This document shows, piece after piece, positions 5,061 to 26,465 of a stretch of DNA of 39,472 nt. This stretch comes from a virus (taxonomy: Duplodnaviria > Heunggongvirae > Uroviricota > Caudoviricetes). The translations under genes were made by a program, and so were the position numbers. Position 1 is the stretch's first letter; every line of letters starts with the position of its first letter. A model generated the notes under the pieces. That model was not told the origin of the DNA, did no database searches, and was given only the letters and a program-made list of their open reading frames with translations. The DNA lies in the IMG/VR virus record IMGVR_UViG_2690316086_000021. One strand, 5' to 3'.

Positions 5061-5423
5061 TTAATGACCTGCTGCGCGGAGTTTTCCGTCAGGCTCACCG
5101 GCAAGAGTCAGTAATTGTCCCTGGTCTTCCTGCAGAATAGTCAGGCGACCACCGCGATTGACATACATCGGCGTTTCGGTGGTGTCTTCTTCGGAAATTT
5201 TCCCACGGTTAGTCGGGCGAACATATGAGAGTTTGTGTTTGATTTTCACACGGTTCTCATCAAATGGTTCGATTTCCAGGTTGAGTGAGACCTTACCTTT
5301 GGTTTTCGTGTTCATCACACCGGAAGCGACTTCACTGAGAACTGCGCCGATTTTGGTTTCAAATACGCCGCCGTCCAGCTCCCCGATAAATGCCTGCACA
5401 TCAGTACTGCGTTCGCTAGCCAT
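5061..5423 (-). CDS. YfdP-like prophage protein (120 aa)
   Basis: The track ORF 5061..5741 is trimmed to ATG 5423 (MASERSTDV...), which is preceded by GAGGAG at good spacing; the upstream 106 codons run through GC-rich structured sequence and look noncoding. Confidence 0.55.
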   Translation of the reverse strand: MASERSTDVQAFIGELDGGVFETKIGAVLSEVASGVMNTKTKGKVSLNLEIEPFDENRVKIKHKLSYVRPTNRGKISEEDTTETPMYVNRGGRLTILQEDQGQLLTLAGEPDGKLRAAGH

Positions 5424-5860
5424 TTTGCTGCTCCTCATCATATCGACCCTGCAAGGCCGATTAGTTTCTCCACAAAACAGAGAAGAACACCTGCGGCGGC
5501 AGCCGCCCGGATGGATTGGGTTATGAGCCCGTCGTCCGGTGATGCTCTTCTCTGTTTTGTAAAAAGGACGGTACCAGCCGGAAGCAAGGGTACAAACTGG
5601 TACCGCCAGGACTACACACAGCATAAAGTTGTGGTGCCGGGTGCCTCCCGGTGCCTGGCGAAGGTTGCACACCAGACGGGTGGGTATCCACAGAAGGTCG
5701 ACTGTCAGCCTCAACCTTAACCCGCGTGCGCTGAGCCGCATTCACCACAACGCTAAGGATTCTCTCTGGTTGAAAATACTTAGCTGTTATGTGCCTGTCT
5801 TTTCACCACTTCAGGCTCGGTGGTATCCTTTTAAGCCCGTATACATAAAAGGAAAATCAA

Positions 5861-6106
5861 ATGACTTTTGATGAAAAAGAACTTGATAATGCAATTAATA
5901 AAATCATCGTAACGTCGCTCTTTTCCTGTCTCAGCGACACTCAGCAGAAACAGTTCTACGAATCGGCTTTCAACATGATCGAGCGTTGTTGTTTCTGCGA
6001 TGCCGACGAGTTACCTGAAAAAATCAGGAAACAGTTGGCTGATGCTCTTCGAGTGCGACTTTCTGACCAATTTTCTGAAATGTGCTCTCCGAATTTGGAC
6101 AAATAG
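5861..6106 (+). CDS. Hypothetical small protein (81 aa)
   Basis: ATG preceded by AAGGA RBS (aaaaggaaaatcaaATG); opens the rightward side of the immunity-proximal region. Confidence 0.4.
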   Translation: MTFDEKELDNAINKIIVTSLFSCLSDTQQKQFYESAFNMIERCCFCDADELPEKIRKQLADALRVRLSDQFSEMCSPNLDK

Positions 6107-6551
6107 AAAAAGGCCATTTCCATTCAGGGTCTGATGGAAATACTTCAGCCTGTTCCAAAGCACGGCGTAAAGAGAACACAACTCCAGCCATAATCTGATG
6201 TTTCCCATTGGTCCAGCTATCGCCGCTCTGATCTACAGGGGCGGCTATGTCGTATGACCAAACGACTTCACAGTTATTGTTTAAAATCTGGACTTTCATT
6301 TCATACACCTGCTTTAACATGAGTGCCTGGTGGCACAACATGACTCAACGAATCATCCTGGACTTCATATGCCCCAGGCGGCTACTTCGTGGGCGTCCTG
6401 CCTGTTCGTTTTTGACATTTACTGACTGCTTACGACACATGCACCGTGTTGCAACCAGATTTTGTTGTAATCCGGTAGTTGGTCTGGAACAAAAGATAAA
6501 ATTAAATTGCGAGATATGCAAGTAATATTTGCGGGGTATGCAAATTTATAG

Positions 6552-6597: not shown

Positions 6598-7290
6598 TTA
6601 ATTATGTCTCTTAAGGGTTTGCGACTGACTGATTAAGACCTTTCCAAAGACCATGAATCGGTGTTCGTTTTCGCTAGTAATTCCCCATTCACGGTAAATC
6701 TGGTTATCAGAAATCACCAGCAGTTTGTCAGGAATCATTTGAAGTCTTTTAACGTATATTTTGTCATCAAAACCAAAGACATATATACCATCACCATCAA
6801 ACTGATTGATGCTGACATCAACGAAGATGAGATCTCCTGGCTCAATGGTTGGACACATACTGTCCCCACGAACGTTGATAACTTTGATGTGATTGGCTGG
6901 TCGTCCGCCGAACATTGATACAGCATTATCAGTTCTGTATTCGATGGCATGAATCACATCAATGACATCACCGCCCTGGATAAGGCCATTTCCCGCACTG
7001 GCACTGATATCCAGCATTTCAATACGGAACACATCCTTCACCTGCGCAACATCCTCATTATTACTGTTTTTATATACAGTATTACTTTTGTGGGCAGAGG
7101 TAAAGAGATCAGCAATATCAACACCTAAGCTCTTGGCAATATTACTCAGTGTTTGTTCGGTAAATTGTTTTTGCTTACCCGTTTCTAAGCGCGAGATGTT
7201 CGCCGCATCTACTCCTATTGCTTCAGCGAGATCGGCGATTTTCATGTTCTTCGCTTGGCGAAGTTGTCTGACTCGGTTTCCTATGTTCAT
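6598..7290 (-). CDS. cI: CI-like prophage repressor (N-terminal XRE HTH + C-terminal S24 LexA-type peptidase)
   Basis: N-terminal HTH (VRQLRQAKNMKIADLAEAIGVDAANISRLETGK) and C-terminal S24-like region (..NVRGDSMCPTIEPGDLIFVD..KRL); transcribed divergently from the cro-like gene. Confidence 0.85.
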   Translation of the reverse strand: MNIGNRVRQLRQAKNMKIADLAEAIGVDAANISRLETGKQKQFTEQTLSNIAKSLGVDIADLFTSAHKSNTVYKNSNNEDVAQVKDVFRIEMLDISASAGNGLIQGGDVIDVIHAIEYRTDNAVSMFGGRPANHIKVINVRGDSMCPTIEPGDLIFVDVSINQFDGDGIYVFGFDDKIYVKRLQMIPDKLLVISDNQIYREWGITSENEHRFMVFGKVLISQSQTLKRHN

Positions 7291-7387
7291 GCGTTTATTA
7301 CATTTCTTTATTGCGTGATAAGCAAATCAACTTGCGCAAAATAATTGCGTGAAATAACATGCATAGCGCGCAATATTTGGAGGTTAT
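7291..7387. promoter_or_regulatory. Immunity operator/promoter region (OR/PRM/PR equivalent) with repeated TTGCG...CGCAA half-site palindromes
   Basis: Intergenic region between divergent repressor and cro-like genes contains TTGCGTGATAAGCAA (7311..7325), the perfect palindrome TTGCGCAA (7332..7339) and ATTGCGTGAAATAACATGCATAGCGCGCAAT (7344..7374). Confidence 0.6.
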
Positions 7388-7648
7388 ATGCAATCACCAT
7401 TACGAAATGTGCGTAAGGCGCATGGTTTCACTTTGCAGCATGTTGCTGCGGGTGTTCAAGTCAATCCAGCGACGTTGAGTCGTATTGAGAGGCTGGAGCA
7501 GATTCCATCTATCGAGCTTGCAGAACGTTTAGCCAATTTTTTTAAGGGTGAAGTCAGCGAAATGCAGATTCTTTATCCGGCACGTTTTCAATCTAGCCAA
7601 AACCAGAATGGGTTTAAACCACAGGAACAGGAGGTGAACCGTGGGTAA
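7388..7648 (+). CDS. cro: Cro-like HTH regulator
   Basis: 86-aa ORF with XRE-type HTH (GFTLQHVAAGVQVNPATLSRIER); GGAGG RBS; divergent from cI. Confidence 0.7.
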   Translation: MQSPLRNVRKAHGFTLQHVAAGVQVNPATLSRIERLEQIPSIELAERLANFFKGEVSEMQILYPARFQSSQNQNGFKPQEQEVNRG

Positions 7649-24249: not shown

Positions 24250-24806
24250 AACTGACGCCTGTTATTGCTGCACTGCGTGCCCGCTGCCCATATTTTGAAA
24301 ACCGGGTGGCAGGCGCCGCACAGTTCAAAAATTTGCCGGAGGTCGGAAAGCTGAAACTCCCGGCGGCATATGTGGTACCGGGTGATGATTCTCCGGGAGA
24401 AAACAAAAGCCAGACCGACTACTGGCAGGAGCTGAAAGAGGGTTTCTCCGTGGTTGTCATACTGAGTAACGGGCGTGATGAGCGCGGTCAGTTTGCCTCG
24501 TATGATGTGGTGGACGATGTCCGGCAGATGCTCTTTAAGGCCCTGCTGGGCTGGAGCCCGGAGGCGTGCGGTAACCCGATTACCTATGACGGCGGCACGC
24601 TGCTGGATCTGAATCGTCATGAGCTGATTTATCAGTTCGATTTTTCGGTCATCAGCGAGCTGACCGAAGACGATACCCGCCAGCAGGATGACCTGAACAG
24701 TCTGGATGAACTGCGAACGCTAGCGATTGATGTTGATTATCTCGATCCCGGTAACGGGCCTGACGGCGATATCGAACATCACACCGAAATAACCCTTCCT
24801 TCCTGA
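24246..24806 (+). CDS. Tail terminator-like protein (hypothetical)
   Basis: 186-aa ORF immediately upstream of the sheath gene. Confidence 0.4.
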   Translation: MKLTPVIAALRARCPYFENRVAGAAQFKNLPEVGKLKLPAAYVVPGDDSPGENKSQTDYWQELKEGFSVVVILSNGRDERGQFASYDVVDDVRQMLFKALLGWSPEACGNPITYDGGTLLDLNRHELIYQFDFSVISELTEDDTRQQDDLNSLDELRTLAIDVDYLDPGNGPDGDIEHHTEITLPS

Positions 24807-24814
24807 GAATCTTC

Positions 24815-24985
24815 ATGTTTGTGAAACCTGTTAAAGGGCGGTCAGTTCCTGACCCTGCCCGCGGCGACCTTTTGCCCGCCGAAGGGCGAAATGTTGATGA
24901 GAACAACTACTGGCTGCGCCGTGAAGCAGCGGGTGATATCCGGCGCGTGAATAAAAAGGTGAACACCGATGACGATAAGCTTTAA
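24815..24985 (+). CDS. Small protein upstream of the sheath gene (DUF2635-like position, 56 aa)
   Basis: Own translation MFVKPVKGRSVPDPARGDLLPAEGRNVDENNYWLRREAAGDIRRVNKKVNTDDDKL; not in the ORF track because it is under 60 aa. Confidence 0.4.
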   Translation: MFVKPVKGRSVPDPARGDLLPAEGRNVDENNYWLRREAAGDIRRVNKKVNTDDDKL

Positions 24986-26465
24986 CACCATTCCGTCGAA
25001 TACGCTGGTTCCGCTGTTTTATGCGGAAATGGATAACCAGGCGGCGAATACTGCACAGGACAGCGGAGCATCGCTGCTGATTGGTCATGCCAATAACGGT
25101 GCAGAGATTGTTGCCAACAGTCTGGTGCTGATGCCATCGGCAGACTATGCACGCCAGATTTGTGGTGCGGGAAGTCAGCTGGCGCGTATGGTCGAGGCTT
25201 ATCGCCAGACCGACCCGTTTGGCGAGCTGTATGTGATTGCCGTTCCTGAATCCACGGGCGCGGCAGCAACAGTTACGCTGACGGTGACCGGGGCGGCAAC
25301 CGAAACCGGCACGGTGAATGTTTATGTGGGACGTACCCGCGTGCAGGCACCGGTGACCAATGGCGATAACGTCGCGACGATTGCCAGCAGTATCCAGGAT
25401 GCCATCAATGCCGTTCCGGCCCTGCCGTTTACGGCCTCATCTTCGGCAGGCGTGGTCACACTGACCGCGCGTCATAAGGGGCTTTGCGGGAATGAAATTC
25501 CTGTCAGCCTCAATTACTACGGCTTTGGTGGGGGCGAAGTGCTGCCTGCGGGCGTACAGATTGCCGTGGCGACGGGGACCGCCGGAACGGGCTCTCCTGT
25601 TCTCACTGGCGCGGTGGCTGCAATGGCGGATGAGCCGTTTGATTATATCGGCCTGCCGTTCAACGACACGGCCTCCGTTAACACGCTGGTGACCGAGATG
25701 AACGATACCAGCGGTCGCTGGAGCTATGCGCGTCAGCTGTATGGTCATGTGTATACGGCAAAGACCGGCACACTGTCAGAACTGGTGAACGCAGGTGACC
25801 AGTTTAACCAGCAGCACATCACCCTGGCGGGGTACGAAAAAGAGACCCAGACGCCTGCCGACGAGCTGGCGGCAAGCCGTACCGCCCGCGCAGCAGTGTT
25901 TATCCGCAACGATCCGGCACGTCCCACGCAGACCGGTGAGCTGGTGGGTATGCTGCCTGCGCCGAAGGGGAAACGGTTCACGATGACCGAACAACAGACC
26001 CTGCTGTCTCATGGCGTGGCAACGGCGTATGTCGAAAGCGGGGTACTGCGCATTCAGCGTGATGTCACCACGTACAGGAAAAACGCTTACGGGGTTGCGG
26101 ATAACAGCTACCTCGACAGCGAGACGCTGCATACCAGTGCGTATGTACTGCGCAAACTGAAATCCGTCATTACCAGTAAGTACGGGCGTCACAAGCTTGC
26201 CAGTGACGGTACCCGCTTTGGTCCCGGTCAGGCGATTGTCACCCCGGCAGTGATCAAAGGGGAACTGCTGGCAACCTACCGTCAGCTCGAGCGTGCGGGG
26301 ATCGTGGAAAACTACGAACTGTTCAAGCAGTACCTGGTTGTGGAGCGTGATGCCAGCGATCCGAACCGCCTGAACACGCTGTTCCCGCCTGACTATGTTA
26401 ACCAGTTGCGTGTCTTTGCCGTGGTTAACCAGTTCCGTCTTCAGTATTCAGAGGAGTCTGCATAA
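24969..26465 (+). CDS. Contractile tail sheath protein (Mu gpL-like)
   Basis: 498-aa ORF followed by a tube gene, in Mu-like tail module order. Confidence 0.85.
   Translation: MTISFNTIPSNTLVPLFYAEMDNQAANTAQDSGASLLIGHANNGAEIVANSLVLMPSADYARQICGAGSQLARMVEAYRQTDPFGELYVIAVPESTGAAATVTLTVTGAATETGTVNVYVGRTRVQAPVTNGDNVATIASSIQDAINAVPALPFTASSSAGVVTLTARHKGLCGNEIPVSLNYYGFGGGEVLPAGVQIAVATGTAGTGSPVLTGAVAAMADEPFDYIGLPFNDTASVNTLVTEMNDTSGRWSYARQLYGHVYTAKTGTLSELVNAGDQFNQQHITLAGYEKETQTPADELAASRTARAAVFIRNDPARPTQTGELVGMLPAPKGKRFTMTEQQTLLSHGVATAYVESGVLRIQRDVTTYRKNAYGVADNSYLDSETLHTSAYVLRKLKSVITSKYGRHKLASDGTRFGPGQAIVTPAVIKGELLATYRQLERAGIVENYELFKQYLVVERDASDPNRLNTLFPPDYVNQLRVFAVVNQFRLQYSEESA

Follow-up and report, generated by a model that had tools for sequence, protein, structure and literature searches.

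A minus-strand structured RNA with an STnc100-type pseudoknotted core in the early-left operon of an SfV-type prophage

The viral record IMGVR_UViG_2690316086_000021 (39,472 nt; the window below is this whole stretch of DNA) contains an SfV-type prophage, and in its leftward early operon a 437-nt region upstream of yfdP, at positions 5424-5860, had been noted in a preliminary description, made from the sequence alone, as a structured non-coding leader. We find, with high confidence, that this region is a non-coding structured RNA of the minus strand, belonging to the STnc100-type pseudoknot-core superfamily. Both folding and covariation agree with a structured non-coding leader or spacer, and the structure is conserved in related prophages, covariation being observed across more than 80 distinct copies with no conserved reading frame. 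As for its function, the region is probably a small RNA (sRNA) precursor cassette of the DicF/STnc100/PasD type, operating through termination and processing by RNase III as well as by RNase E, and also attenuating the operon.

From 5' to 3', the modules are the hairpin 5794-5746, the core, a single-stranded stretch, a terminator, a hairpin with a 22-bp stem, and the yfdP ribosome-binding site. The features of the region are as follows.

5804-5823, minus strand: small hairpin CCACC-GAGCCUGAA-GUGGUG, upstream of the 5794-5746 hairpin
5746-5794, minus strand: long irregular hairpin of about 20 bp, GCACAUAAC-A-GCUAAG-UAUUUUC...GAGAAU-CCUUAGC-GUUGUG
5628-5751, minus strand: 124-nt pseudoknotted core, supported by the match to Rfam STnc100, the models R1 and R2, covariation and the pseudoknot test
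5751-5743 with 5636-5628, minus strand: closing helix P1, GUUGUGGUG with CACCACAAC
5724-5721 with 5680-5677, minus strand: core helix
5676-5670 with 5660-5654, minus strand: helix S2
5718-5712 with 5667-5661, minus strand: pseudoknot S1, AAGGUUG with CAACCUU in the S2 loop
5651-5637, minus strand: near-invariant hairpin CCGGG-AGGCA-CCCGG, one of the inverted repeats described earlier
5610-5623, minus strand: conserved single-stranded stretch UGCUGUGUGUAGUC, following UUUA, between the core and the terminator
5561-5608, minus strand: DicF-like intrinsic terminator with a 13-bp stem (GGTACCAG/CTGGTACC), a 15-nt loop and a UUUUU tract
5472-5560, minus strand: long hairpin of about 22 continuous bp with a branched apex, containing the 15-bp arms described earlier
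5431-5436, minus strand: Shine-Dalgarno sequence GAGGAG of yfdP, read from the sequence; the K-12 context is identical

The pseudoknotted core

The region was identified by a covariance-model search against Rfam, one of the checks proposed in the preliminary description. In a permissive scan, the STnc100 model (RF02076) aligned over its full length (1-206 of 206) with positions 5781-5559 of the minus strand (41.2 bits, E = 4.3e-7, a score below the gathering threshold). The region shares with STnc100 the UGGUGAAU junction and an identical CACCGGGAGGCACCCGGCACCA block, joined by the closing helix, as well as the intrinsic terminator at the 3' end, and, like STnc100, it is prophage-borne. It differs in the 5' hairpin of the core, which starts with GCGGCUCAGCGC instead of being CCCCU-GUGCGG-AGGGG, and in its location, as the window copy belongs to the early-left operon and follows a putative processing hairpin, whereas STnc100 proper is found after Q genes; besides, the Rfam consensus has no pseudoknot.

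A 20-mer common to the STnc100 consensus and the window, CCGGGAGGCACCCGGCACCA, occurs in at least 120 IMG/VR viral contigs, yielding 87 distinct cores. These share one architecture: P1, a GAAU junction, a 5' hairpin, S2, the near-invariant CCGGG-AGGCA-CCCGG hairpin, and S1, formed by the strand directly 3' of the 5' hairpin pairing with the S2 loop. We distinguish two types of core by the 5' hairpin, CCCCU-GUGCGG-AGGGG in type A (STnc100 proper) and GCGGCUCAGCGCACGCGGG in type B, the type of the window. The window copy has P1, S2, the AGGCA hairpin and the S1 pseudoknot, and thus belongs to the superfamily comprising both types. Four type-B copies served to build the covariance model R1, which gives the window 147 bits on the minus strand and 10.6 bits on the plus strand; R2 scores 110 bits, also on the minus strand. 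R1 matches 113 copies in 100 loci; in the window, including the PR and late operons, a search with R1 and the filters off gave no second copy of the core.

In the R1 alignment, which was fitted to the model's own structure, 90.2% of the cells are paired as compared to 75.0% in shuffles, and changes on both sides are seen in 20 of the 29 pairs. The covariation score is 0.335 versus 0.112 for shuffled alignments (0 of 500 as high), and it does not exceed 0.071 when the partners are slid; in S2, all seven pairs show compensatory changes. A MAFFT alignment of the divergent cores proved structurally wrong in the variable part, hence the model-based alignment was used and the pseudoknot was tested in each sequence separately. 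The best complement of the S2 loop begins 30-36 nt from the 5' end in 35 of the 38 representatives (at least 6 bp in 28 of those), and approximately 18 different S1 sequence pairs are in use, for example AAGGUUG/CAACCUU in the window and AAGGCUG/CAGCCUU in phiES15. The mean score of true S1 partners is 15.6, that of swapped partners 11.5 +/- 2.7. The AGGCA loop is retained although its stem covaries (CCUGG/CCAGG in K-12, UCGGG/CCCGA in Enterobacter).

Folding of the region and its flanking modules

Folding of both strands, also among the checks proposed earlier, shows that the region is strongly structured, the minus strand more so: the 437-nt minus strand folds with -180 kcal/mol (z = -5.8; 0 of 100 shuffles reach this), and the plus strand with -158.8 kcal/mol (z = -3.2). 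The three inverted repeats pointed out in the preliminary description do exist in the region. ACAAAACAGAGAAGA (5472-5486) pairs with TCTTCTCTGTTTTGT (5546-5560), these 15-mers being 59 nt apart and extendable to arms of 25 nt that are 84% complementary with 39 nt between them; CGGTACCAG (5569-5577) pairs with CTGGTACCG (5597-5605); and CCGGG-tgcct-CCCGG is at 5637-5651. They are not nested, as had been thought, but form consecutive, side-by-side hairpins, and they leave out several helices, namely the 9-bp closing helix (5751-5743/5636-5628), the pseudoknot and the hairpin at 5784-5752. The region was also called GC-rich, which holds for approximately 5440-5760 (0.53-0.58 versus 0.40-0.45 in the flanks) and not for 5760-5860, which is AT-rich.

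Upstream of the core, the hairpin 5794-5746 folds with -18.9 kcal/mol (z = -4.6). The 3' strand of its base is also the 5' strand of the closing helix P1, so the two structures compete and are mutually exclusive. When the 5' flank was folded together with the first P1 strand only, an equivalent hairpin was found in 10 of the 11 type-B-like loci, the eleventh, ST64B, having a more complicated fold. Nearly all type-B copies have such a hairpin in front of them, among them those of the window (5746-5794), L149 (2673-2759), L131 of lambda (approximately 988-1066), L005, L007, L009, L010, L020, L075 and L096. The basal helix covaries: it is CGUAAC/GUUGCG in the P1-like phage JL22, GCACAAC/GUUGUGC in lambda and ACCAGAU/AUGUGGU in L020. 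By analogy with K-12, we predict this hairpin to be a site of RNase III cleavage. In the smaller hairpin (5804-5823), a comparison by eye with 118970_sal3, phiES15 and E. coli L133 shows that the stem is kept and the loop varies.

Downstream of the core, the single-stranded UGCUGUGUGUAGUC is kept between differing flanks in ST64B (Salmonella), phiES15 (Cronobacter), Citrobacter L139, and E. coli L133 and L146. Given its position and the analogy with the 5' region of DicF, this stretch is a candidate seed or Hfq module, and the A/U-rich 5627-5624 immediately upstream of it is a candidate RNase E site. The terminator (5561-5608) folds with -23.8 kcal/mol (z = -3.4). Its 5' half, UGGCGGUACCAGUUUGUAC, is near-identical to UGGCGGUAUCAGUUUUAC of DicF, and intermediate forms are seen in Citrobacter L139 and E. 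coli L146; a simple terminator scan missed it because the loop is longer than 8 nt. Core start and U tract are approximately 190 nt apart, which is the size of the long DicF species.

The long hairpin (5560-5472; -51.3 kcal/mol, z = -7.3) begins directly after the U tract, two nucleotides past the last U in the minimum free energy fold. It accompanies the terminator rather than the downstream gene, as the next gene may be yfdP or rdgC; it is 96% identical in mEp460 and Stx2 phages, where the cores differ, and compared to ST64B it has one compensatory change from G-C to A-U. Since its position corresponds to that of the helix cut by RNase III after the DicF terminator in K-12, we predict the same role here, namely, that of an RNase III-type processing or stabilizing site before yfdP. 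In mEp460 (L005 3197-3331, minus strand), and likewise in the Stx2 phage (L006), a divergent core (20.8 bits with R2) lies upstream of the same terminator and long hairpin; the mEp460 core variant differs in its linker and carries the hairpin CCGG-AGAUCAGCA-CCGG. Thus, core, seed and terminator appear to be exchanged as separate modules.

The core in the dicBF operon and in other phages

In species-representative genomes, a scan with the type-B motif yields matches in Escherichia, Shigella, Citrobacter and Enterobacter, and most of those in Escherichia sit between dicF and dicB of Qin-like prophages. The dicF-dicB spacer of K-12 MG1655 (L149 2955-3082; NC_000913 1649454-1649581) is a member of the family, scoring 64.4 bits with R1, 74.3 with R2 and 34.4 with STnc100; its closing helix extends to 21 bp, and it has a pseudoknot of its own, CAGUUAA/UUAACUG, read from the sequence.

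The processing of DicF offers a template for the window. RNase III is reported to yield a 72-nt DicF from read-through transcripts (PMC5069750). As DicF is annotated at L149 2883-2935, the 72-nt form (19 nt longer) ends at 2954, one base before the start of the K-12 core at 2955, and hence, by our arithmetic, the cut would fall within the 21-bp closing helix. RNase III also forms the 5' end of a 190-nt DicF precursor, from which RNase E then forms the 53-nt DicF, and no internal promoter was found in the dicBF operon (PMC10448788). Counting 190 nt back leads to approximately L149 2746-2750, which is in a predicted hairpin of about 22 bp, CCAUAAC-GC-GAAAGCGCAUGG...CCGUGCGCUUC-CG-GUUGUGG, the homologue of the window's hairpin 5794-5746.

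The two operons have much in common. Each is a PL-type operon beside a CI/Cro-like immunity region, downstream of a CI-like repressor (DicA in Qin), with an sRNA module ending in a closely similar intrinsic terminator hairpin, UGGCGGUAYCAGUUU...; each has a long hairpin with a GUUGUG basal strand 5' of the sRNA module, a long duplex directly after the U tract, and the same pseudoknotted core. The differences are in the order of modules, which is core, sRNA with terminator, hairpin and yfdP in the window versus degenerate core, DicF with terminator, core and dicB in Qin; in the 5' seed, UGCUGUGUGUAGUC in the window and UUUCUGGUGACGUU in DicF; in the ftsZ-pairing loop, which is not conserved in the window; and in the downstream genes, which are unrelated. 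Against the ftsZ mRNA from -60 to +40, RNAduplex gave energies no better than those of shuffles, even for DicF itself.

The type-A copies are flanked by Q antiterminator genes on one side and by holin, lysozyme or nanS-p esterase genes on the other. Many of them begin approximately 7 nt after a TTGACn-N17-nTAAAT promoter (e.g., L080 5442-5556, L045, L114, L017 and L024) and appear to be the RNA first transcribed from late promoters. Two to four cores may stand in tandem, approximately 250 nt apart, each with its own terminator (L018, 2325-3351, four copies; L027, 374-989, three copies; L072, L033, L068, L073). In P1-like phages, a type-B core precedes tciA by about 27 nt, and neither a terminator nor an sRNA module is present there.

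STnc100 itself is known from Rfam and from detection by reverse transcription PCR (RT-PCR). PasD1 and PasD2 of enteropathogenic E. coli are validated Hfq-dependent sRNAs of lambdoid prophages, 80-240 nt long and ending in a terminator (PMC8550237), and PasD and STnc100 are reported to be structural relatives (bioRxiv 10.64898/2026.05.13.724894). The likeness of PasD to the window RNA is taken from these published descriptions, and PasD differs in its location, which is the late region, close to Q and lpxR, instead of a PL operon. A limited literature search found no published description of the pseudoknot, the copy in the dicB 5' untranslated region (UTR) or the link to DicF, which is no proof of novelty.

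Genomic setting and the position of PL

The window is an SfV-type prophage integrated beside tRNA-Thr(CGU); the tRNA gene, at 1369-1444 on the plus strand, marks the prophage edge and fits a thrW-type integration site. The region is 99.5% identical to positions 24617-25053 of Shigella phage SfV, and it was found in 2785 of the 5426 complete E. coli genomes, with a coverage of at least 80% in 1814. The order on the minus strand is cI, the cI terminator, orf33, a gap of about 600 nt, yfdP, yfdQ, yfdR, and then xis and int. The neighbouring features are as follows.

6598-7290, minus strand: cI, with its terminator at 6578-6561
7388-7648: cro
6507-6521 and 6529-6543, minus strand: OL operators TTGCGAGATATGCAA and TTGCGGGGTATGCAA, direct-repeat family D1, outside the 5424-5860 region
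6507-6543, minus strand: inferred PL, TTGCAT-N17-TATCTT, hexamers read by eye from the sequence
6024-6341, minus strand: orf33, starting at 6341 or 6299 and ending at 6024, preceding the gap of about 600 nt
5061-5423, minus strand: yfdP, 120 aa, start codon ATG at 5423 (PGAP and K-12 annotation), phrog_204, the first gene past the RNA

The operator palindrome TTGCGnnnTAnGCAA has one OR copy at 7311-7325 and, immediately to the left of the cI terminator, two OL copies at 6507-6521 and 6529-6543. As the OL palindromes match OR, PL should fire leftward from approximately 6500, which places the region past orf33, 650-1050 nt into the PL transcript, and not at the promoter. Phage mEp460 has the same OL/PL layout; in the SfV record, the annotation covers the OR region only, not OL.

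Processing model and points against it

In the favoured model of an sRNA precursor cassette, RNA polymerase starting from PL (approximately 6500), presumably the only promoter involved, would transcribe orf33, the hairpin 5794-5746, the core 5751-5628, the stretch 5623-5610 and the terminator 5608-5561, and termination would produce an RNA of approximately 190-230 nt. With a cut by RNase III in the upstream hairpin, the GUUGUGGUG strand would become available for closing the core, and the species of about 190 nt would be defined, while a cut by RNase E in the A/U-rich linker would release a DicF-like sRNA of about 65 nt, binding Hfq and acting in trans by means of the conserved stretch. A further effect of the terminator would be attenuation of yfdP, yfdQ and yfdR. 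Polymerases reading through it would meet the 22-bp hairpin 5560-5472, a putative second site of the RNase III type, and a cut there would both trim the 3' end of the sRNA and give the yfdP mRNA its own 5' end.

A similar arrangement exists in lambda, where the RNase III hairpin of the N leader and sib form long duplexes in the PL transcript, and RNase III sets the ends and the expression of the mRNA. There, too, a long perfect duplex is situated just before or after a gene; the difference is that no sequence similarity to the window is observed and that cleavage in the window is a prediction.

Several points weigh against the model. An Hfq-type sRNA leaves a conserved 124-nt pseudoknot with near-invariant loops unexplained, and the location of the core directly before tciA (P1-like phages, no terminator) and before dicB (K-12) suggests that it has a cis role of its own. 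The cleavage sites are all transferred from K-12 by arithmetic on gel sizes, accurate to a few nucleotides in either direction. A local promoter is conceivable; the simple promoter scan also misses the inferred PL. The scores are below the thresholds of the databases: STnc100 has 41.2 bits with a gathering threshold of 47, DicF (RF00039) has 15.7 bits (E = 3.2, 5566-5620, minus strand) with a threshold of 48, K-12 DicF scoring 76.7 bits with the same tool, and neither family is reported at gathering thresholds. The fitting of the covariation alignment to its own model, mentioned above, also belongs here. Finally, two putative relatives recognized by eye were detected by neither R1 nor R2 and are unproven, one being a degenerate core in the K-12 region upstream of dicF, and the other the lambda late leader (L131 988-1142; lambda 44787-44941, from tR' to S), a reduced relative in which an upstream hairpin and GUUGUGCUGAAU...CAGCACAAC are seen.

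Alternative explanations

A tentative extension, to which we give a good deal less weight than to the sRNA cassette, is that the core is a functional RNA class in itself, binding a conserved host factor and acting either by control in cis or by titration in trans, with the seed and the terminator being separately exchangeable additions. RNase III would gate the folding of the core, since in the upstream hairpin the 5' strand of the closing helix is sequestered. Such a module may be common to STnc100, PasD, the dicB 5' UTR, the tciA leaders of P1-like phages and the PL operons of the SfV/ST64B type, and its near-invariant UGGUGAAU junction and AGGCA loop may bind a host factor such as RNA polymerase, the ribosome or an RNase.

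Somewhat less likely, the core could be a cis-acting leader that controls read-through of the following terminator in the manner of put, or translation or stability of the next gene, the sRNA being a by-product. The core is always found in leaders or spacers of phage operons that need to pass terminators, both in PL-type operons (window, ST64B, phiES15, Qin) and in Q-dependent late leaders, where it often starts from +1 of a sigma-70-like promoter, and the leader of tciA-ban in P1-like phages has it without a terminator, approximately 27 nt from the start codon. Binding of a conserved host machine is suggested by the near-invariance of the loops. No N-like protein was found between cI and the terminator, neither orf33 nor the unrelated phiES15 open reading frame (ORF) in the same position has a Pfam family, and ST64B has no orf33 homologue. 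On the other hand, the RNA resembles neither putL nor putR in sequence or structure, the window has one copy only, with none in the PR or late operons, and in Qin the order is reversed, with the terminator preceding the core. PasD and STnc100 (the latter by RT-PCR) accumulate as terminated RNAs, and thus the terminator works. Lastly, a candidate antiterminator pairing of CGCCAGG (5660-5654) with CCUGGCG (5610-5604) is not conserved in ST64B and phiES15, for which reason it was also rejected as a switch.

It is rather improbable that the cassette is an autonomous "moron" sRNA gene, transcribed in the lysogen independently of PL from its own constitutive promoter in 5860-5790. This would agree with the TTGACn-N17-nTAAAT promoters that many type-A relatives have approximately 7 nt before the start of UGGUGAAU, with the existence of tandem arrays, and with the detection of STnc100 and PasD in uninduced cultures. 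At the same time, the simple promoter scan gave no promoter-like site in 5790-5860 of the minus strand, what precedes the core is itself conserved in the form of RNA hairpins in which the core's 5' strand takes part, and the homologous dicBF operon has no internal promoter (PMC10448788).

The preliminary description had assumed that the region holds PL and nut- or put-type antitermination signals, which now seems very unlikely. Both the side of cI and the strand are right for this, and the region contains a structured RNA before a terminator, but OL and PL are at 6507-6543, about 650 nt to the right. The boxA pattern (YGCUCUUWA) has a single match in the window, at 24529, which is at the chance level, and orf33 shows neither a Pfam family nor, in our reading of its sequence, an N-like arginine-rich N-terminus. 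In lambda, JL22, L075 and L096, a boxA-like UGCUCUUU precedes the copy, but it proved to be paired to AAGAGCA as the 3' strand of the upstream hairpin. The put RNA of HK022 is likewise a structured early RNA ahead of terminators in a lambdoid phage with no obvious N protein; however, put is about 70 nt long, consists of two stem-loops and is located at the promoter in both the PL and PR operons, whereas the window has a single copy approximately 700 nt from PL, and its relatives terminate efficiently. No similarity to putL or putR was observed, R1 and R2 have no match in the HK022 locus, and the search of the window with the filters off did not give the further copy that would be expected after PR in a put system. 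The GGTACCAG hairpin is an intrinsic terminator, not an antiterminator.

A ligand-sensing riboswitch, with the core as the aptamer and the terminator as the expression platform, is still less credible: the layout of a P1-closed multi-helix junction followed by an intrinsic terminator is classic, and the junction nucleotides are near-invariant, but there is neither a Rfam riboswitch match nor a conserved antiterminator/terminator alternative, and the distance and order of core and terminator vary, with the terminator absent in some copies.

Protein coding, be it by the 226-aa ORF 5061-5741, the PGAP pseudogene 5438-5748 or a 49-aa ORF, can practically be dismissed. The start of yfdP is ATG 5423, so the ORF extension over 5424-5741 is spurious, as had been judged in the preliminary description. 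In favour of coding, PGAP annotates a "frameshifted hypothetical protein" pseudogene at 5438-5748 (minus strand) in identical E. coli sequences, the ORF 5438-5587 matches phrog_33599 (E = 7e-15), and the terminator regions of the window and ST64B differ in length by 21 nt, by our count, a multiple of three. Yet any given frame through the core is open in at most 44 of the 80 distinct copies, and indels ignore the codon phase, the interval between 5' end and motif, taken modulo 3, being distributed as 31/30/19. For the ORF crossing the hairpin, the ratio of nonsynonymous to synonymous differences (pN/pS) in comparison with ST64B is 0.83, with pS of 0.21 versus 0.79 in the adjacent yfdP, so that "synonymous" sites are four times more conserved in the former. 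No Pfam match was obtained, and the ORF begins at a TTG that lies in the terminator hairpin and lacks a ribosome-binding site; base-pair covariation in the core also speaks against coding. Hence both the pseudogene and the PHROG 33599 match appear to be annotation artefacts that reflect conservation of nucleotides, not translation.

Significance

The cassette is a common E. coli variant of known prophage sRNA loci, lying below database thresholds, and in this respect it is only moderately new. Its sequence, present in about half of complete E. coli genomes, is currently either unannotated or called a frameshifted pseudogene, and recognition of the RNA cassette corrects the annotation and ties together DicF, STnc100 and PasD by one pseudoknotted core. 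What is of remaining interest is this highly conserved core; since K-12 carries it in the dicB 5' UTR, its function can be tested in a standard laboratory strain. Should the core control read-through or processing, this would bear on early-left expression in lambdoid phages lacking N and on the restraint of the toxic genes dicB and dicF.

Other observations

Coupling between the RNA and orf33 was considered and rejected, as ST64B has the RNA with no orf33 homologue, and the phiES15 ORF located there is unrelated. The ORFs 5861-6106 (plus strand) and 6024-6341 (minus strand, orf33) overlap by 83 nt on opposite strands. Both match full-length PHROG families without assigned function, 3311 and 3195, respectively, and only the minus-strand one is annotated in SfV and by PGAP. 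The plus-strand ORF, if real, would be antisense to the PL transcript; if it is not, the gene-free stretch could extend to 6023.

In the CPS-53 prophage of K-12 (L132 9248-9604), the RNA region upstream of yfdP is replaced by iteron-like repeats (GACGGGTCAGATTTT...), and only the last 25 nt or so before the yfdP start codon are retained.

To the right of cro, SfV, ST64B, mEp460 and the Stx2a phage have the isrK and C4 antisense RNAs, which score above the Rfam thresholds (L001 6487-6675; L002 5731-5919; L005 5675-5863; L006 5730-5918). The window has neither isrK nor C4, and thus its immunity-right region differs from that of SfV.

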